Shown piece after piece: positions 2,291-9,379 of a stretch of DNA of 9,379 nt. Position numbers and translations under genes: made by a program. The notes beneath the pieces are model-generated. The model was not told the DNA's origin and ran no database searches. It was given only the letters and a program-made list of their open reading frames with translations. Within the stretch, counting starts at the first letter, position 1. Each line of letters starts with the position of its first letter. The DNA is from a virus (lineage: Duplodnaviria; Heunggongvirae; Uroviricota; Caudoviricetes), in the IMG/VR virus record IMGVR_UViG_2778261313_000003, positions 1 through 9,379 of that record. One strand, given 5' to 3'.

Positions 2291-2643
2291 TACGCCTCCG
2301 ATGTAACAGTCGTTATTCCATAAAGAGTGTCGATTTCAGCGGAAAACATGACACGTCGGGTCGTGGTATCCACCGTCGTATTGAAAGAGAGGATTGATTT
2401 AACGCCCTGCGTTTCGAGGATGCGCTTACGGATCGCCAGGTTGTAGGTTTCCGGCTTCTGCTTACCGAGTACGGACTGGATCCACGGAGTCCCCTCGGTG
2501 GTGTCGAGAAACCATTGCCCATACCACAATTCGAATCGAGTTTTTACCGCCTGCGCCACGGCCTCCGGTGAGTTAATCAGCCAAGTGTCATCACCGCTGC
2601 CAAAGGTGTAATCGCCATCGGCGTCTTCACGTCTGTATCGCAT
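2290..2643 (-). CDS. small baseplate protein at the gpW/gp25 position (Mu gp46-like)
   Basis: 117-aa ORF whose ATG overlaps the stop of the V-like gene and whose stop overlaps the ATG of the J-like gene. Call is by synteny; no lysozyme-like motif was verified. Confidence 0.5.
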   Translation of the reverse strand: MRYRREDADGDYTFGSGDDTWLINSPEAVAQAVKTRFELWYGQWFLDTTEGTPWIQSVLGKQKPETYNLAIRKRILETQGVKSILSFNTTVDTTTRRVMFSAEIDTLYGITTVTSEA

Positions 2644-3395
2644 CAGTTTACTCCGTCGGTATTGCTTCCACCGCGCTGAACACCACCATGAGTGTGCGTA
2701 TCATCGATTGGCTTGCCGTTAGCCTTCACGCTACCCAAAAACTCAACAGCACCAGTGATTTTTGAAGCCACACCAGAAACAACAGACCCCACCATGCCTC
2801 CCATCCAGGTTAACAGGCCATGAATGGTTACTTTCTCAGAAAAATCAGCCAGAGGGGCAACCACATCAAGGCCCCCCGGAGCGACAATTTTAATTTTCCT
2901 GGTATCAGGATTAAGCTCAAAATAGGTGCTGCCGTCATCACTACGCAACTGTGTGGCACTGGTATTAATACCGCTAATCTTCCTTGCCTGCGACTGGGGA
3001 CCGACAATACAAAACGCATCCGATAAATCATGCATTCTGTCATCGACCGGCTCCTGTATCCCGCCACTCTGCCACCAGAAATCAATACAACGATCGGCAA
3101 AAATCACCAAACATTCATCACCGGCTTTAACTGGAAACGTTAGCGTACAGCCTCCGCCACGCGGGAATACCACTGGCACATCCACCAGCAATGGGTAATT
3201 TTTGGTAATGCGGTTGCCGTCGTTATCAATTTCAACGTAACGGATAGCAGGCTGTACAACCGCCGTCACCGCATCAGGAGCGAATGACTGAACAATGCCA
3301 GGCAAGGCGACACGGATCTGGTTCTTTGTTGTTTCCCGTTCAGATTTAAATGTTTCGGCAAGGTCGCCGCTGCGGGTCTGGTCAGATACTGCCAT
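2643..3395 (-). CDS. baseplate central spike / assembly protein V-like
   Basis: 250-aa ORF. The N-terminal half contains ...PLLVDVPVVFPRGGG...GDECLVIFADRCIDFWW...RMHDLSDAFCIVG, a pattern I recognise from spike N-terminal (gp138-N / Mu gp45-type) domains. RBS GGAG sits 8 nt upstream of the ATG at 3393..3395. Confidence 0.6.
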   Translation of the reverse strand: MAVSDQTRSGDLAETFKSERETTKNQIRVALPGIVQSFAPDAVTAVVQPAIRYVEIDNDGNRITKNYPLLVDVPVVFPRGGGCTLTFPVKAGDECLVIFADRCIDFWWQSGGIQEPVDDRMHDLSDAFCIVGPQSQARKISGINTSATQLRSDDGSTYFELNPDTRKIKIVAPGGLDVVAPLADFSEKVTIHGLLTWMGGMVGSVVSGVASKITGAVEFLGSVKANGKPIDDTHTHGGVQRGGSNTDGVN

Positions 3396-3411
3396 TTAGT
3401 AGGCTCCAGAA

Positions 3412-3440
3412 AGCAAAAAACCCTCCAAGTGGCGGGTTTG
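3412..3440 (-). terminator. putative rho-independent terminator downstream of the HEPN-like gene
   Basis: Minus-strand RNA would read CCCGCC-ACUU-GGAGGG (five G-C pairs with one internal G/A mismatch, extendable by flanking A-U pairs) followed by UUUUUU. It lies between the stop of the 142-aa gene (3460) and the RBS of the V-like gene (3404..3407). Confidence 0.45.
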
Positions 3441-3459
3441 AATTTTGAGAAATTTCAGC

Positions 3460-3888
3460 TTATGCAGTTAACGAGTCATCACCAATCTTCAGTAATTGAT
3501 TAACGATTGCATCGACCTCTTCCGCATCCAGAATTACACTTCTCGCGGTAATCCGGTTGATTTTCCGCTCAAGCTTGTAATCAGAATTAACACGTTGGGC
3601 ATGCGTCATTTTCAGTTTAACGCCGATTTTCTTTACTGCGTTAACATCAACATCGTTAAGTGCAGCTGCCTCACCACTACAAAAGGCCGTATAGACTCGC
3701 ATGTGAACTCCACCTTTTAGTTTTTCACCATCTTGTGTAGCGGTCGGTACCAGATTGTTGGTGATCCGTAAGACGGAATGGTACATACCATAGTATGCTC
3801 GGCTAATAGCATTTCTCGTCCACATCTCACCGTTTAGAGCCAGGGAATGCTTAGCCAATTCAAGAAAACAGGTATGCTCAACCGACAT
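3460..3888 (-). CDS. HEPN-like domain protein (UPF0332-type), candidate RNase toxin/effector
   Basis: 142-aa ORF with ordered motifs as in classical HEPN/UPF0332 proteins: SRAYYGMYH (res 29-37, Arg30-x6-His37), KGGVHMRVYTAF (58-69), QRVNSDY (98-104) and an acidic C-terminal helix DAEEVDAIVNQLL. The ATG shares one nucleotide with the stop of the upstream 243-aa gene (TAATG). Assignment is from motif recall, not an HMM score. Confidence 0.5.
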   Translation of the reverse strand: MSVEHTCFLELAKHSLALNGEMWTRNAISRAYYGMYHSVLRITNNLVPTATQDGEKLKGGVHMRVYTAFCSGEAAALNDVDVNAVKKIGVKLKMTHAQRVNSDYKLERKINRITARSVILDAEEVDAIVNQLLKIGDDSLTA

Positions 3889-4619
3889 TAGAGTTCCCCG
3901 GCTTCAAAGCATCCGACGCATTCTGAATCCGCAAGCCCCGCAATAATAATCTCATCAGCCAAGGCATTATTCATCTGCGAAAGAAGCACTGGATCGTCTG
4001 TTTTGACTTCAACGAACAGCGTATCAAGTTCTGACATTACATAAAAAGCATGAGCGCCAGCAAGACGAGCGCGGTACTTTTCTGCAACGTTCATCATGAG
4101 CCGCCCAATAGTTTTTAGCTCCTGAGCATGATCTTTTTGGGTATGCAGATAATTGAGCGTGTCATACCATTTGCCCATATCTTCAGGGCGCGGTACTTCC
4201 ATTGCAGTTAGCATCGGCATCACCTTTTCAAGCAAATCGATATCAACCCAGTATGCAGAAATTGTAGCAACCTCAGCCAATATCGTTGGATTAAGTGAAT
4301 CAGATGCTTTCTGAATCATCACATACTGGCGAGCATGCAAACCTAAGTTACGCAGCGCAATCGTATAGTTACAAAAAGAAACTGGATCGTTAGGCGCTAT
4401 TCTCAACCCCCGCTCACAGAGTGAACATCCTTCATCTATTTCACCAAGAACAAGCTTAGCTAAGCCTTCAATTGATAGCCCCTGATAACGTTCAGGTAGT
4501 TTCTTCGCTTCACGAATGATTCGATGGATTTCAAACTCACTCAGAAGGTTTTCACCCTTAGTTAATGAAGGAGTCAGAAGATCTAACAGTTCTCCTGATT
4601 TTGGCTGCGCTAAACTCAT
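3888..4619 (-). CDS. hypothetical protein, first gene of the two-gene cassette (possible antitoxin/sensor partner)
   Basis: 243-aa ORF, start ATG at 4617..4619 preceded by AGGA about 11 nt upstream. Predicted mostly helical with two CxxC motifs (C65-S-L-C68 and C234-V-G-C237). No Walker A and no nucleotidyltransferase G[SG]...DxD motif was seen. By eye the gene is roughly 40-45% GC against roughly 50-60% in flanking tail genes. Confidence 0.6.
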   Translation of the reverse strand: MSLAQPKSGELLDLLTPSLTKGENLLSEFEIHRIIREAKKLPERYQGLSIEGLAKLVLGEIDEGCSLCERGLRIAPNDPVSFCNYTIALRNLGLHARQYVMIQKASDSLNPTILAEVATISAYWVDIDLLEKVMPMLTAMEVPRPEDMGKWYDTLNYLHTQKDHAQELKTIGRLMMNVAEKYRARLAGAHAFYVMSELDTLFVEVKTDDPVLLSQMNNALADEIIIAGLADSECVGCFEAGEL

Positions 4620-4768
4620 GTTTTAGTTATTCCTGGCTTTAATGAAGTAGCATATCGATGGCAATCCACCATCAAAAAGTCAGTGCAGTGTAATCGCTCG
4701 TCTCAAAAAACAACAGTTTTTAGAGCACATTTTGTTGTTTTTCAGGCGTTACGAATTTCAGGTTACCT
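4620..4768 (-). promoter_or_regulatory. intergenic leader of the cassette with a weak sigma70-like promoter candidate
   Basis: 149-bp non-coding gap upstream of the 243-aa gene. On the minus strand the best candidate is TTGATG (plus 4670..4675) and TATGCT (plus 4649..4654) with a 15-nt spacer, which is suboptimal. No strong consensus promoter was found. Confidence 0.25.
4705..4742. repeat. AT-rich inverted repeat (10-11 bp arms, about 17-nt spacer)
   Basis: AAAAAACAACA at 4705..4715 is the exact reverse complement of TGTTGTTTTT(T) at 4733..4742. It lies in the gap between the secreted-protein gene and the cassette. Confidence 0.5.
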
Positions 4769-5110
4769 TCACCCAGCCACTTTTTTACAAGGGAAAGATC
4801 CGATGATTTTCGGCGCATCCATGCTGTTCTGCAGAAGCTGGACATTCAGGAATCGCGTTTCGGTACCAGGGCGACGAATGTATTCAAAGCCGTAGTTGTT
4901 ACCGTCTTTGGCAGGCATAAGCCCCATGTCTACTTTCAAACCATTGGTACCCAGTTCGGTGATTTTTTGAGAGGTAACTCTTTCACCGTTGATAGTCGAT
5001 AACTCGCCCTGGTTTGCAACCATAGTGTAGCCACCGCATTTAACCGTGAAGCCATCCGCCCACGCGCTGCACGCAGAAAAGACAGCTAACAGAAAAATAA
5101 TACCCCTCAT
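4769..5110 (-). CDS. small secreted protein or lipoprotein of unknown function
   Basis: 113-aa ORF with an N-terminal signal peptide (MRGIIFLLAVFSACSAWA; possible lipobox FSAC or signal peptidase I site AWA/DG) and two Cys in the mature part. RBS AGGGGA sits 6 nt upstream of the ATG, which lies 3 nt after the hub gene stop. Confidence 0.6.
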   Translation of the reverse strand: MRGIIFLLAVFSACSAWADGFTVKCGGYTMVANQGELSTINGERVTSQKITELGTNGLKVDMGLMPAKDGNNYGFEYIRRPGTETRFLNVQLLQNSMDAPKIIGSFPCKKVAG

Positions 5111-5113
5111 TGC

Positions 5114-6175
5114 TCATCCCCTTTGCAAAGCCGATCGCGTATACAGATCCGCCGCGCCACGCGCTTCGCACATCATATCCATGTACCACGCCTGGCCCCT
5201 TGTGTCGCCAGTGTACATAATCCCGCGCACAATATAAACGCCATCCGTTGCGATGCTGGCAGGCTGCGATGTGGTGCCGCTTAGCGTGATATTTCCATCC
5301 GTGTTCTGGTCGGTGATCTGACCACCAGCCATCGCAATATCGTTGTTCGACAAGGCGGTACGATACACGGAAGCCTGATCCAGCTGAATAAGTCCGTTAA
5401 CCCGGATGTTCGGATTAATAAGCGCGCGGACGTTTACGCCGTTACCGATAGTCTGCTGCGGCATGCCAATAAGCCCGGTAGCGCTGTTGAGCACAATCGC
5501 TTCATGAACATATTCGTTATTCGCCACCATCTGGCGCTGACCGTCCACGAATTGCCATGTTGCGCCACATTGCCCGGCTACGTTATCCATTAGATGCCGC
5601 GTCATGCCAAAGAGTACCCGCCCCCGGGGGAATACAGTAGCAGGCATTTCAGGCGTCAGGCCTTCGGTCGCGCCTTTGGCTTCGAAGTCTTTCATCAGCG
5701 CACGGTTTACATCAGCGACCGTGTAACCGGCAGCCAGCGTCTGTGAGGTTATACTGGTGGCAAAAGCCAGATCAGTATCTGCTGCCTGAATCAGGACGTA
5801 GGAATCAACCGGACTGTCTTTTCCTGTGACCGAGTAGCGAATTTCACCGCTGAAAATCAGTCCGTAGTTGCGGCCATCACTCTGACCCACGTCCGCCGCG
5901 TCAACTTCCCGCACGGTCCCGACGTCGCTTGCCGACACCTCCGGCGCGATACCGTCGTAACCGGCAATCAGACGCACTTTCGAAAACTCCTGCCCGGTGA
6001 TTCGGTTCACAGTATCTGCCGAGAGGTTATAAATTTTGATAGTCCCTACCCGGGACGCGCTGCTGATGTTGAACCAGTCGATCGTAAAGGTGACTTTAAA
6101 ATCACTTAGCTCAATTCCCTGACCGTTCCCGTCCACAAGCTGCAGCTCGAAATGTCTCATCCAGTTCTGTGACAT
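5114..6175 (-). CDS. putative baseplate hub protein (P2 gpD / Mu gp44 / XkdQ-like)
   Basis: 353-aa ORF with RBS GGAG 5 nt upstream of the ATG. Size, position after the tape measure and small tail genes, and a C-terminal ...DGVYIVRGIMYTGDTRGQAWY... segment resemble hub proteins of simple contractile tails. Identity is inferred. Confidence 0.45.
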   Translation of the reverse strand: MSQNWMRHFELQLVDGNGQGIELSDFKVTFTIDWFNISSASRVGTIKIYNLSADTVNRITGQEFSKVRLIAGYDGIAPEVSASDVGTVREVDAADVGQSDGRNYGLIFSGEIRYSVTGKDSPVDSYVLIQAADTDLAFATSITSQTLAAGYTVADVNRALMKDFEAKGATEGLTPEMPATVFPRGRVLFGMTRHLMDNVAGQCGATWQFVDGQRQMVANNEYVHEAIVLNSATGLIGMPQQTIGNGVNVRALINPNIRVNGLIQLDQASVYRTALSNNDIAMAGGQITDQNTDGNITLSGTTSQPASIATDGVYIVRGIMYTGDTRGQAWYMDMMCEARGAADLYTRSALQRG

Positions 6176-6177
6176 GC

Positions 6178-6480
6178 TTACTCCGTTGATACCAGTAAAT
6201 GGCTGCGACCGCCCAGGTCAGTTTTTGTGGGGTAATCCTGTGTGTTGTCATCACAGACCACCACCAGCTTAAAACCAAGCCCCATACAGGCGTACTGCGC
6301 CAGCAGGTCAGCACCAGTGACGAGAGGAATACCGGAGATTACCGGCTCCCCTCTGTCGTTCTGCAGGTCCATAATCCAGTACAGATCGCGCCATATGATG
6401 CTAATCCGCCAGGTGACACCACCCAGGACGATGCTGAACTGCTGGTTGTCCGCTGTCAGCGGAATTTCCTGAATTGTCAT
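6178..6480 (-). CDS. small phage tail/baseplate-associated protein (unassigned family)
   Basis: 100-aa ORF whose ATG at 6478..6480 overlaps the stop of the upstream 195-aa gene. Its stop lies 2 nt before the hub gene ATG. Confidence 0.5.
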   Translation of the reverse strand: MTIQEIPLTADNQQFSIVLGGVTWRISIIWRDLYWIMDLQNDRGEPVISGIPLVTGADLLAQYACMGLGFKLVVVCDDNTQDYPTKTDLGGRSHLLVSTE

Positions 6481-7067
6481 TAGCCGCCCCCCAGTAATGA
6501 CGCCACGTTACCCGTGATGCTTTTCAGCAGTGAAGTATCTGGAGGTTTTGTGGTTTTGTTGCCGCTGTTCTGTACCGCCGACGTGCTGGCCCCTTCCTTC
6601 ATGTTGGTTTTATCCGCGACGGTAATCTGCTGTGTCCGGGAGATAATGACCTCCCTCAGGGTGAGGACGGCGGACAGGACGTTTTCGGTTGTCTTGTCCG
6701 TCGTCACTTCCAGCGCCCGGATCAACATGTTGCTGTACAGCCGTTTACCGGTTACCACATCGAAGGGGATACGGCTTTCCTGCAGATCCAGTAGCTCCTG
6801 ATACGTCTGCTGAGGACTCAGGCCGAGCAGGCTGGTAGCCGTCAGGTTACTGGCAAAATCCAGCAATGCGCCGCCACCGGCGAAACCAACCTCCATCACC
6901 ACTTCTGACGGTTTTTTATAGGCATGATCAGCGACAGCGGCCCCGACCTCTACCGGATGCTCTGTTATTTCAAGCATATCTGTATGCTTCTCTGAAATAA
7001 CAACACTGGGAACAATCATTCCTATTTTTCTGCTCTGCTGATGAAAAAGTGTAGAGAGAATATCCAC
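6480..7067 (-). CDS. phage tail protein (unassigned family), probable GTG start
   Basis: 195-aa ORF. Codon 1 is GTG (plus 7065..7067), overlapping the tape measure TAG stop and preceded by GAGGGTGGGG. The first internal ATG (codon 17) has no good RBS. Confidence 0.5.
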   Translation of the reverse strand: MDILSTLFHQQSRKIGMIVPSVVISEKHTDMLEITEHPVEVGAAVADHAYKKPSEVVMEVGFAGGGALLDFASNLTATSLLGLSPQQTYQELLDLQESRIPFDVVTGKRLYSNMLIRALEVTTDKTTENVLSAVLTLREVIISRTQQITVADKTNMKEGASTSAVQNSGNKTTKPPDTSLLKSITGNVASLLGGG

Positions 7068-9052
7068 TACCCCACCCTCACCTGATTACTTCGCATGACC
7101 TGAGCATTTGCAGACTGTTGCCGACGTGCAACCTCATTACCGACAGCGTGCGGATCTCCGCCACCGTAAATATGGTAGGTATTTTGCTGGTTAACCTCTG
7201 TCACTTTGCCACTAATTCCCGCCACGGCAGCCTTATTAATCAGCTCTCGAGAATAGATATTTCTTCCATTCTCATGCTGGATAATGCTGCTCATCAATGC
7301 TGACATGGTTTGCGGATCGCTCATATTCAGGGCAGCCCGGGGATCCACTCCCAGTCGTTGCGATACAGCCCTGATATACGCGGTTGTGTTGTTATTATCA
7401 GACGCAGGTGCCCAGGTAGAGATAATTTTCTCCACACTGTTTATTCCCCGTCCGGCGTACAGCATTAACTGACGAGCAAGAGCCCGTAATCCATCAAAAG
7501 CGGTTTCAAATCTGGCAAATCGCCCGCCCGGTCGTTCAAGAGAAGCCCCCGCCTGACCAGCAAAATTAAGGTTTCCCGGATTGTTATTCCGTTCTCCTCG
7601 CTTCGTAGCCTGTGCATGTTGTTCCGGCTCAGCACCTGGAATATCTGACTGAATATTTGCGCCTTTTACGGTATGAGGATTACGACCAAAATCGGTATCA
7701 ATGCCAAGCCAGCGCAATGAATCTCCAATATTTTGTTTCGTGTAATCCCAGGATGACTTCGCACTGGCACCAATATTTTCGCGATCGGAGTACAAATAAG
7801 CAGCATAAGCCATCCAGCCTTTTAACCATGGCGGTACCGGCAAACCAGATATTTTCCCGAAAGCCCCCAGAACCCTGGATACCCAAACACCCGCGATGAA
7901 TGTACCGAGGATTTCCAGTGCATTTTGCCAGCCGCCAACACCATCTTTTAGTTCCAGAAGGTGATCACGAAGCCAGGTGATCGCATCCTTCGCTTTATCT
8001 ATTGCCGGTTGCCATTTTTCCCAGTCGATAAGACTGTTACCGCCTTCTTTCCATGTTTTGTAGTCTTCCCACAAGAGACCGAGAGCCACGATCAGACCGG
8101 TAATCAGCCCTATAGGTGACATCCAGAAAGTAGAGTTAAGTATCCGCATGGCGACAACCAGACCGCCGATAACCTCTATCAGGGTTTTCGTTTCGGCATC
8201 CAGTTTCCCCCACCACTCGATGATATCTCCGACACCATCGACTATCCGAAATGCTACCCGCCCGACTATCTCACCCAGCCAGAGGATCCCCTTTATGACC
8301 TTTGTGATGGTGACTTCAATTTTGGGAAAATTTTCAATTATCTTTTTGCGCAGGTTATCAATCTGCCCCGCCAGTCCGTCCGCAAGATTCGATCCGATTT
8401 TGTCCCGCGCCATCCCGGCCATTTCACCGAGCGATTTCAGCGAGGTCATAAACCGGTTTGACGATAAGGCAGCCTGATCGGCATTAAATCCGATCGCTTT
8501 CACCATTTCTGAATACTGAGCGCTGAACTGCCCCACTCCGCGACGCATAGCCATCAGGGTATTTTCGTCAATGCCCAGCATCTGCGCATACTGGTTAGCC
8601 CGGTAATACGGCATGCTGCTGAGTTTCTGTCCAACGCCCGTAAAGATAGCAGCCATGTCACGCATGTTACCGCGGGCATCACGGGTCTGTACGCCCAGGC
8701 GATTCAGAAAGCCTTCTGCTCCGGGATTGTTACGAATAAACCGGGAGAGGCTTTCCAGAGAAGATCGCGCAGCGTCCACACTGCCGCCAACCTGCGAAAC
8801 CGCATAGCCAATAGACTGAATTCCCTGGACCGTCGCGCCGGTGCGCTGTGACGCCCAGTAAAGATTATCCAGGCCGGAGGCGATCTTAGCCGTGAAGGCC
8901 ACCACGGACAGCGCAGCTCCTTCAACAGCCAGCCCCATTTTGATGACATTTGCAGTTGTACCGGCGAGGACAGAACCGAACTTTTTCGCTCCTGCATCAT
9001 CCACACTGAAGCCAAGCGAGACGAGGAAATCTTTAATAGTTTCAGCGTTCAT
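7067..9052 (-). CDS. phage tail tape measure protein
   Basis: Long ORF (661 aa from the ATG at 9050..9052, which has GGAG 8 nt upstream; the track's TTG start at 9073 adds 7 codons). Helical, Ala/Gly-rich N-terminal half, a central hydrophobic stretch (LIEVIGGLVVAMRILNSTFWMSPIGLITGLIVALGLLW) and a C-terminal segment containing NNPGNL ... WAP ... HENG. It sits at the head of the baseplate gene block. Confidence 0.75.
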   Translation of the reverse strand: MNAETIKDFLVSLGFSVDDAGAKKFGSVLAGTTANVIKMGLAVEGAALSVVAFTAKIASGLDNLYWASQRTGATVQGIQSIGYAVSQVGGSVDAARSSLESLSRFIRNNPGAEGFLNRLGVQTRDARGNMRDMAAIFTGVGQKLSSMPYYRANQYAQMLGIDENTLMAMRRGVGQFSAQYSEMVKAIGFNADQAALSSNRFMTSLKSLGEMAGMARDKIGSNLADGLAGQIDNLRKKIIENFPKIEVTITKVIKGILWLGEIVGRVAFRIVDGVGDIIEWWGKLDAETKTLIEVIGGLVVAMRILNSTFWMSPIGLITGLIVALGLLWEDYKTWKEGGNSLIDWEKWQPAIDKAKDAITWLRDHLLELKDGVGGWQNALEILGTFIAGVWVSRVLGAFGKISGLPVPPWLKGWMAYAAYLYSDRENIGASAKSSWDYTKQNIGDSLRWLGIDTDFGRNPHTVKGANIQSDIPGAEPEQHAQATKRGERNNNPGNLNFAGQAGASLERPGGRFARFETAFDGLRALARQLMLYAGRGINSVEKIISTWAPASDNNNTTAYIRAVSQRLGVDPRAALNMSDPQTMSALMSSIIQHENGRNIYSRELINKAAVAGISGKVTEVNQQNTYHIYGGGDPHAVGNEVARRQQSANAQVMRSNQVRVG

Positions 9053-9142
9053 TATCCTCTCTCCATTTCTCAATGCGCCGCTGGTTATCCGCTTTTACCG
9101 CCAGATGGTCATTCAAGAGAGCAATGTCATACAAATCGACAG
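9042..9142 (-). pseudogene. 3' remnant of the gene upstream of the tape measure gene, severed by the IS insertion (possibly tail assembly chaperone)
   Basis: Only one minus-strand frame is open from the IS boundary (9142) to a TGA at 9042..9044 (VDLYDIALLNDHLAVKADNQRRIEKWREDNER*), ending 11 nt inside the tape measure gene. The other two frames stop within 5 to 10 codons. The frame has no start codon in the window. Confidence 0.3.
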
Positions 9143-9379
9143 TGTAGATTCAATCTGTCAATGCAACACCCCTTTCAATTATCTCTTTCGGTGTTTTGAA
9201 CTTCAGTGTCTTTCTCGGTCTGTTGTTTAGCTGAGCAGCAACCAGATCTAGTTCATGTTGAGTATATTGGGCAAGACATGTCTTTTTAGGAAAGTACTGC
9301 CGAATTAGCCCATTTGTGTTCTCATTTGTTCCCCGCTGCCAAGGACTCTGAGGATCGCAGAAGTAAACTTTAACGCCGG
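9143..9379 (-). mobile_element. IS30-family insertion sequence, right end (element continues beyond window)
   Basis: The terminal sequence TGTAGATTCAATCTGTCAATGCAAC begins at 9143. The adjacent minus-strand frame encodes a transposase C-terminus carrying the IS30-family signature around the catalytic Glu (PWQRGTNENTNGLIRQYFPK). Confidence 0.8.
9150..9379 (-). CDS. IS30-family transposase, C-terminal 75 codons (5' part outside window)
   Basis: Minus-strand translation ...VKVYFCDPQSPWQRGTNENTNGLIRQYFPKKTCLAQYTQHELDLVAAQLNNRPRKTLKFKTPKEIIERGVALTD*, with the stop at 9150..9152 inside the terminal inverted repeat. Confidence 0.8.
   Translation of the reverse strand, partial: GVKVYFCDPQSPWQRGTNENTNGLIRQYFPKKTCLAQYTQHELDLVAAQLNNRPRKTLKFKTPKEIIERGVALTD

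Follow-up and report, generated by a model that had tools for sequence, protein, structure and literature searches.

Cor (phages phi80, N15, and T1) and Llp (T5) are obligate lipoproteins encoded beside the gene for the receptor-binding protein and matched to it, and they protect the infected cell or lysogen. Spackle (Sp) of T4, a periplasmic inhibitor of the gp5 tail lysozyme, is helical. The classical moron layout comprises a nested promoter, gene(s), and a terminator, read through by Q-modified polymerase; morons in lambdoid late operons, as reportedly defined by Juhala and Hendrix, include lambda lom and bor and HK97 gp15. Hotspots of variable accessory genes in P2 prophages are said to have been described by Rousset et al. 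in 2022. Here, we report the computational analysis of a gene for a 113-amino-acid (aa) protein, which is the first, almost fixed occupant of an accessory slot in SEN34-like temperate myoviruses of Enterobacterales. That the gene is accessory and its product exported and nonstructural is well supported; our best guess for the function, to which we give a probability of roughly 0.35, is a periplasmic superinfection-exclusion factor.

The window (the whole stretch of viral DNA analyzed, 9,379 nucleotides) carries all of its long open reading frames on the minus strand, where they form the tail-tip/baseplate module of a temperate myovirus. The module also includes W-like, J, and DUF2612 genes. 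The features used below are as follows, in the order of transcription.

7067 to 9073, minus strand: tape measure gene
6480 to 7067, minus strand: gene for a Dit-like protein
6178 to 6480, minus strand: plug gene, Pam3-gp18-like
5114 to 6175, minus strand: baseplate hub gene, directly upstream of the small gene (phrog_196 at 1e-88; weak Pfam E217_GP41)
5210 to 5238, minus strand: predicted sigma-70 promoter-like site TTTATA-N17-TACACT, in hub codons 313 to 322, approximately 100 nt upstream of the small gene
5117 to 5122, minus strand: Shine-Dalgarno sequence AGGGGA, within the last hub codons, 6 nt ahead of the small-gene ATG
4769 to 5110, minus strand: gene for the 113-aa exported protein of the PHROG 3443 family (the small gene)
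5054 to 5110, minus strand: Sec signal peptide predicted by heuristics, codons 1 to 19 (MRG, IIFLLAVF, and SACSAWA before D20)
3888 to 4619 and 3460 to 3888, minus strand: two-gene cassette encoding 243 aa and 142 aa
3413 to 3439, minus strand: intrinsic terminator AAACCCGCCACTTGGAGGGTTTTTTGC, immediately 5′ of the spike ribosome-binding site, closing the accessory slot
2643 to 3395, minus strand: gpV-type spike gene, downstream boundary of the slot

The nearest sequenced phages are the vB_EcoM-606R2 group, Yersinia phage YP3, and Salmonella phage SEN34. Positions 3300 to 5300 (small gene and cassette) are 99.9% identical to a lambdoid-type prophage beside torT in Escherichia coli strain WAT, in which a Q antiterminator is present. 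The window edges (1 to 91 and 9250 to 9377) match unrelated phages, namely, a tail-fiber gene of mEp213/mEp043 (96%) and phage phi456 (99%), which shows mosaic joints at both module ends. Past the window's left end, the WAT prophage (locus L011, approximately 14800 to 17100) has two oppositely oriented fiber-assembly genes and a gp53-like fragment, and this tail-fiber region looks like an invertible fiber-tip segment.

The small gene runs from ATG (5108 to 5110) to TGA, and only 3 nt separate it from the hub TGA (5114 to 5116). In most of the 121 nonredundant loci (from 181 retrieved), its start lies −3 to +5 nt relative to the hub end. Given the position of the hub stop and a Shine-Dalgarno sequence inside the hub end, hub and small gene are translationally coupled; an earlier note made from the letters of this DNA had described a 113-aa frame coupled to the hub gene, and its length, position, and coupling are all as described there. 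The protein matches phrog_3443 over its full length (E value, 8.4e-48; residues 2 to 112 on profile positions 2 to 114 of 115) and has 396 homologues at an E value of ≤1e-3, all unnamed and all from Enterobacterales. Together with a dN/dS ratio of approximately 0.13 in this frame, which indicates purifying selection, these matches show the gene to be real. Its GC content is 48% (0.482), versus 54.5% (0.545) for the hub.

Some GenBank annotations of this region are faulty. The hub of the 606R2 group is split into two coding sequences (phage 606R2, locus L001, 2937 to 4001), and the small gene is annotated from an internal Met, with the signal peptide dropped, in SEN34 (L003, 4109 to 4342) and ST340-VIM1phi10.1. 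In GZ7 (L007, 4001 to 4330), it was left unannotated, and L005 (4097 to 4330) is also among the annotation problems.

Export signals were scored by heuristics (charged n-region, hydrophobic core, and −3/−1 residues) over 258 full-length family members. In the window allele, the core IIFLLAVF reaches a Kyte-Doolittle 9-residue mean of up to 3.1, and A-W-A precedes D20. A hydrophobic core is present in 255 members, small residues at −3/−1 stand right ahead of a conserved Cys-Gly in 242, and K or R occurs within the first 7 residues in 220; members at merely 25 to 32% identity retain the same N-terminal layout. The N terminus reads as a classical Sec signal peptide, and the proposal of an exported, signal-peptide-bearing protein is borne out by these heuristic Sec features in approximately 94 to 99% of the 258 members.

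Lipidation was assessed with the pattern [LVI][ASTVI][GAS]C at the signal-peptide end. The window allele has a lipobox-like FSAC (Cys14), with an atypical −3 residue and an early position, and a lipobox-like Cys occurs in 33 of the 258 members (13%), nearly all in the window's allele group; lipidation is thus possible for the window allele and is not a family trait. The suggestion that the protein is possibly a lipoprotein can therefore be kept for the window allele and dropped for the 87% of the family that lack the motif. For the family as a whole, cleavage by signal peptidase I and a periplasmic location are predicted. The same motif bears on receptor masking in the manner of Cor or T5 Llp, by which the protein would bind the fiber receptor, exclude relatives, and spare progeny from debris: FSAC in the window allele speaks for it, one of the substitutes found in the slot is a lipoprotein, and the receptor blockers already known are likewise small, exported, and encoded in tail regions, but a masking protein would sit poorly with a family mostly devoid of the lipobox and with a gene that adjoins the hub and not the receptor-binding protein.

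An exhaustive profile search of 1.8 billion proteins returned 40 cluster representatives, 4 of them spurious; the giant repeat proteins P0125, P0143, P0146, and P0159 from this search were discarded as compositional/repeat artifacts. Another protein from the search, P0145 (292 aa), is a fusion in which a lipoprotein signal (LSGC) and an unassigned domain of approximately 170 aa precede the family domain (residues 197 to 291). The small protein had no Pfam, NCBIfam, or PADLOC match, and Pfam searches at an E value of ≤10 with all 70 aligned members gave scattered chance matches only. A PDB sequence-profile search yielded nothing below an E value of 1 (two chance-level matches, 1.2 and 1.8), no homology to any known exclusion protein was found, and literature searches turned up nothing on the family or on the STY106x locus tags. 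PHROG 3443 is a narrow orphan family of unknown function.

An AlphaFold2 model (70-sequence alignment; pLDDT, 83.7; pTM, 0.68) shows a signal helix followed by an all-beta domain, and the mature part (approximately residues 20 to 113) is predicted to be a small 8-stranded beta-barrel. The modeled barrel is avidin- or calycin-like, its fold matches are generic, and Foldseek found no specific structural relative. Cys25 and Cys108 probably form a disulfide; at least 90% of the 70 aligned members keep them, and among close relatives neither residue varies. A clustering of conserved loops at one barrel end was considered and set aside, as the difference was not significant (p, 0.27). The protein falls outside two known groups: the MliC/PliC lysozyme inhibitors, recognized by a Pfam MliC domain and lysozyme pairing, and the 8-stranded outer-membrane barrels of the Ail/Lom/OmpX type, recognized by a transmembrane barrel of at least approximately 150 aa and a Pfam Ail_Lom match.

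Since avidin- and calycin-like folds often bind small ligands, the product could instead be a host-fitness (lysogenic conversion) factor outside phage defense, such as a ligand-binding or envelope-protective periplasmic barrel. The annotation searches gave no ligand-binding family signature, which counts against such a role. The confinement of the family to Enterobacterales prophages agrees with it, and its tight translational coupling with a late structural gene does not.

Among GenBank phages carrying the small gene (606R2 group, YP3, SEN34, Mulock, and GZ7/RCIP), it always lies immediately 3′ of the hub; it also follows the hub, at 27 to 32% identity, in Omnitron and several Klebsiella prophages. 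In a hub-seeded set of 80 loci (hub at least 97% identical, not dereplicated), the gene next to the hub belongs to the family in 74. At that position, the remaining 6 encode one of two unrelated products, a 241-aa lipoprotein whose leader ends in LFLTSC or a signal-peptide-bearing protein of approximately 150 aa. An exported substitute of approximately 150 aa, whose signal peptide had been clipped in the annotation, is likewise found in Hafnia phage yong1, so that all loci examined have a gene for an exported protein immediately 3′ of the hub. Far from being the unusual resident between hub and spike that the earlier note had taken it for, the small gene is a near-constant first gene after the hub in prophages of this E. 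coli/Salmonella/Klebsiella group, with an unrelated exported substitute elsewhere. Such substitutes at the exact position suggest a role in the tail module or infection cycle, which weakens the host-fitness explanation further.

The substitute genes were located in L163, L161, and L166 (6068 to 6793), L154 (5446 to 5907), L010 (6267 to 6743, minus strand of the fetched locus), L177, and L175; the coordinates for L154, L161, L163, and L166 are given with the hub set on the plus strand. None had a significant Pfam or PHROG assignment, the sole PHROG match being a weak one to a family of unknown function (E value, 0.005). In L010 (5238 to 5306) and L175 (6535 to 6585; hub on the plus strand in both), 17 to 23 codons from the 3′ end of the small gene (78 to 100% identical) survive beyond its replacement, which suggests that the conserved 3′ end of the gene (FLNVQLLQNSMDAPKIIGSFPCKK) may serve as a recombination joint. 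A truncated remnant within a decayed Pantoea prophage (L018) was uninformative.

In cyanophage Pam3, Edwardsiella phage ZHS, and Acinetobacter phage A785.1, which have a homologous baseplate, the hub is followed directly by the next baseplate gene (in the Pam3 annotation, hub gp19 and then spike gp20); the small gene is therefore a lineage-specific accessory and not a core structural part. A check of its presence or absence in related phages, which had been proposed earlier, thus gives a gene kept in 74 of 80 close loci and absent from these three distant relatives.

These data also bear on whether the product serves the phage itself, as a periplasmic late-cycle helper (in lysis timing or in envelope or progeny protection) or as an assembly or structural component of the tail. 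Presence in almost all members of the lineage, coupling to the hub, purifying selection, and a slot that always encodes an exported protein would all be expected of such a gene. On the other side, tail assembly, being cytoplasmic, is incompatible with a Sec signal peptide; related baseplates, that of Pam3 included, do without such a gene between hub and spike; E. coli WAT has a full lysis cassette (holin, RrrD lysozyme, and lysis protein) annotated elsewhere than at the small-gene locus; and the terminator and promoter-like site described below point to expression outside the late program. Literature searches turned up no virion proteomics for any related phage. We regard a late-cycle or structural role as improbable.

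Between the small gene and the spike, the 121 nonredundant loci hold at least 38 unrelated cargo families, and in three loci the small gene stands alone, with no cargo. The 243/142-aa cassette of the window co-occurs with small-protein alleles of 56 to 100% identity, and near-identical alleles also occur without the cassette, so the two are exchanged independently. In its interchangeable cargos between conserved flanks, the hub-spike interval resembles the prophage hotspots of P2; unlike hotspot cargos, the small gene is the constant left-hand member and varies by allele exchange, not by presence or absence.

The 243-aa protein of the cassette belongs to phrog_22649 and the 142-aa protein to phrog_5176, the latter with a weak PADLOC match to HEPN_IX (E value, 0.0036). 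The 142-aa family occurs in 37 nonredundant loci, where it has at least 2 different upstream partner families. In the 149-nt spacer ahead of the cassette, the best promoter-like sites are TTGCCA-N17-TAAAGC (4664 to 4636) and TTGATG-N15-TATGCT (4675 to 4649). A terminator or structured RNA in this spacer (4620 to 4768) was also considered; only an AT-rich hairpin was found, with a fold z-score of −0.6, and the candidate was rejected.

The slot is closed by a conserved signal. In 114 of the 121 nonredundant loci, whatever the cargo, the 75 nt that precede the spike start contain a strong intrinsic terminator, a hairpin with a T-run, and in the minimal loci L071 and L090 the terminator is directly 3′ of the small gene. 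Its common form is ACCCGCCACCCGGCGGG followed by T6; the window terminator has one stem mismatch, C to A (GGAGGG for GGCGGG), which weakens the hairpin to a predicted −9.5 kcal/mol versus −15.2 kcal/mol for the common form.

The promoter-like site inside the hub has a position weight matrix (PWM) score of 8.4, versus 6.4 for the 99.9th percentile of the window, and ranks first among minus-strand sites with a −35 element in 3380 to 5500. A stricter consensus promoter scan of the minus strand found none. Two independent observations converge on this site. Synonymous diversity in the hub is lowest at codons 311 to 335. Of 126 conserved degenerate codons in 17 hub lineages (<92% identical to one another), Thr322 ACT is the most conserved; it is invariant in 17 of 17 and is the sole 4-fold degenerate codon that never varies. 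The −10 element, which reads TATACT in divergent lineages, takes its final T from the third position of this codon. A recombination anchor at the hub 3′ end could instead explain the synonymous conservation, and we hold it plausible, at about even chances, that the small gene sits in a nested promoter-gene(s)-terminator unit. The expectation that the gene is made with the late tail genes stands as far as its hub-coupled translation goes; the promoter-like site and the conserved terminator indicate that it is probably not expressed late only.

The comparison with lambdoid morons is close but incomplete. Of the moron characters, the small gene has the terminator as well as patchy presence and deviating GC content. 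Like lambdoid morons, it is an accessory gene within a Q-antiterminated late operon, with an intrinsic terminator 3′ and probably its own promoter; it has a lower GC content than its neighbors, encodes an envelope-targeted product, and is absent from distant relatives. Unlike them, it is coupled to the hub with no intergenic space, its putative promoter lies inside the hub coding sequence, it is nearly fixed in the lineage, and its product has no sequence similarity to described moron products. The reading as a moron, offered in the earlier note, is thus supported by an exported product, an accessory gene, a cargo-collecting site, and a terminator 3′, and fails in that the gene is not sporadic within its lineage. 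The moron-like architecture of the unit is also what would be expected of a host-fitness factor; with the coupling, the substitutes, and the annotation searches weighed against it, we consider that explanation rather unlikely.

Alleles of the small gene are more diverse than their surroundings. In loci whose hubs share at least 95% identity, the mature small proteins average 0.79 in pairwise identity, versus 0.96 to 0.98 for Dit, plug, hub, and W, and dS is 1.18 for the small gene versus 0.2 for the hub. Hybrid small-protein alleles were found (P0005 and P0046). Positive selection was rejected on the dN/dS of approximately 0.13, and the combination of high dS, low dN/dS, and hybrids indicates that the diversity comes from old alleles moved by recombination and not from rapid adaptive change. 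The allele pattern looks typical of conflict or accessory genes.

Covariation of the alleles with tape measure, Dit, plug, W, J, spike, and fiber tip revealed no linkage beyond hub adjacency. Allele identity had a rho of 0.10 against the tape measure, 0.16 against the spike, and 0.05 against the fiber C terminus (permutation p, 0.11); phages paired by small proteins at least 95% identical share only 21% fiber-tip identity. A protein that masks the fiber receptor would be expected to follow the fiber tip, and with this result added to the scarcity of the lipobox, receptor masking is very unlikely; the receptor-blocking lipoprotein that had been put forward as an example is disfavored on the same ground. 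The small protein is like Cor and Llp in being small, exported, and encoded in a tail region, and unlike them in its nonconserved lipobox, its lack of fiber-tip linkage, and its place beside the hub.

Residues 491 to 624 of the tape measure (window 7202 to 7603, minus strand) form a peptidoglycan-hydrolase domain, matching endolysin 7q47 (1e-13), Gp29 of 9vvp (1e-20), and phrog_873/phrog_7182. YP3, SEN34, ST340-VIM1phi10.1, and yong1 have an unrelated SLT transglycosylase domain at the same place, a domain swap within otherwise similar tape measures. A periplasmic location, a small barrel, and a lysin domain in the window's own tape measure would suit an inhibitor of peptidoglycan hydrolases on the model of PliC/MliC or T4 Spackle, the barrel binding and blocking either the tape-measure lysin of incoming or progeny tails or the endolysin. 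However, the YP3 small protein is 97% identical to that of the window, yet its tape measure carries SLT; no link was found between presence of the family and type of tape-measure lysin domain, 35 loci having the family without the NNPGN-type domain and 7 the reverse; allele and tape-measure identity are unlinked, as given above; and no member matches Pfam MliC even at an E value of ≤10. The same allele with two unrelated tail lysin domains makes a lysin-specific mechanism unlikely, so the enzyme inhibitor named as the other example in the earlier note is disfavored too, and we give hydrolase inhibition little probability.

T4 Spackle and the protein studied here are both small, Sec exported, and periplasmic, and both belong to phages whose tail has a peptidoglycan hydrolase; blocking of the incoming tail in the periplasm is, by analogy, a plausible logic common to the two. 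Unlike Spackle, the modeled small protein is all-beta apart from the signal helix.

As a superinfection-exclusion factor, the small protein would be exported to the periplasm by the Sec pathway and would fold there as an 8-stranded barrel, probably disulfide bonded. The gene would be translated together with the hub during late transcription and probably also transcribed from a promoter buried in the hub 3′ end, in which case the pre-spike terminator would stop such transcripts in the lysogen. The protein would hinder the entry of an incoming phage after adsorption, and its target would be a conserved tail-tip component or a host envelope factor, rather than the phage's own tail lysin or a specific outer-membrane receptor: with linkage to fiber tip, tape measure, and spike lacking, the remaining candidates are host envelope components and those phage parts that stay constant (hub, plug, or Dit). 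Against exclusion, allele identity is unlinked to any tail gene examined, so that no target is indicated; an exclusion moron, moreover, would not usually be so nearly universal, and the gene could instead serve a need of the phage itself.

A broader and more tentative proposal, rather unlikely in our estimate, concerns the position and not the family alone. The post-hub position may be a dedicated exported-protein slot, hub coupled and occupied by at least three unrelated families, which would mark an undescribed periplasmic activity tied to contractile-tail penetration in SEN34-like myoviruses. Exclusion factors of a new class, for instance, could act once the outer membrane is pierced and put out of action either a host entry factor or one of the conserved tail parts (hub, plug, or tape-measure tip), with a beta-barrel fold family new to such a role.

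Whatever the function, the slot is cleanly bounded, with the conserved hub 3′ end and the small gene as its left border and the conserved terminator as its right, and is a convenient anchor for mining cargo genes. Prophages of the window type are common: window positions 3300 to 5300, which take in the small gene, the cassette, and the adjoining ends of hub and spike, find matches to at least part of their length in 336 of 5,426 complete E. coli genomes, and the small-gene family has 531 IMG/VR matches. The family is uncharacterized and somewhat more interesting than a stray moron, holding a fixed, hub-coupled position beside a highly variable cargo site. Should exclusion prove to be its role, the small protein would bring both a new fold and a new target step to the few envelope-level prophage defenses, and it would bear on which phages are chosen for therapy when the target strains are lysogens of Klebsiella, E. 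coli, or Salmonella.
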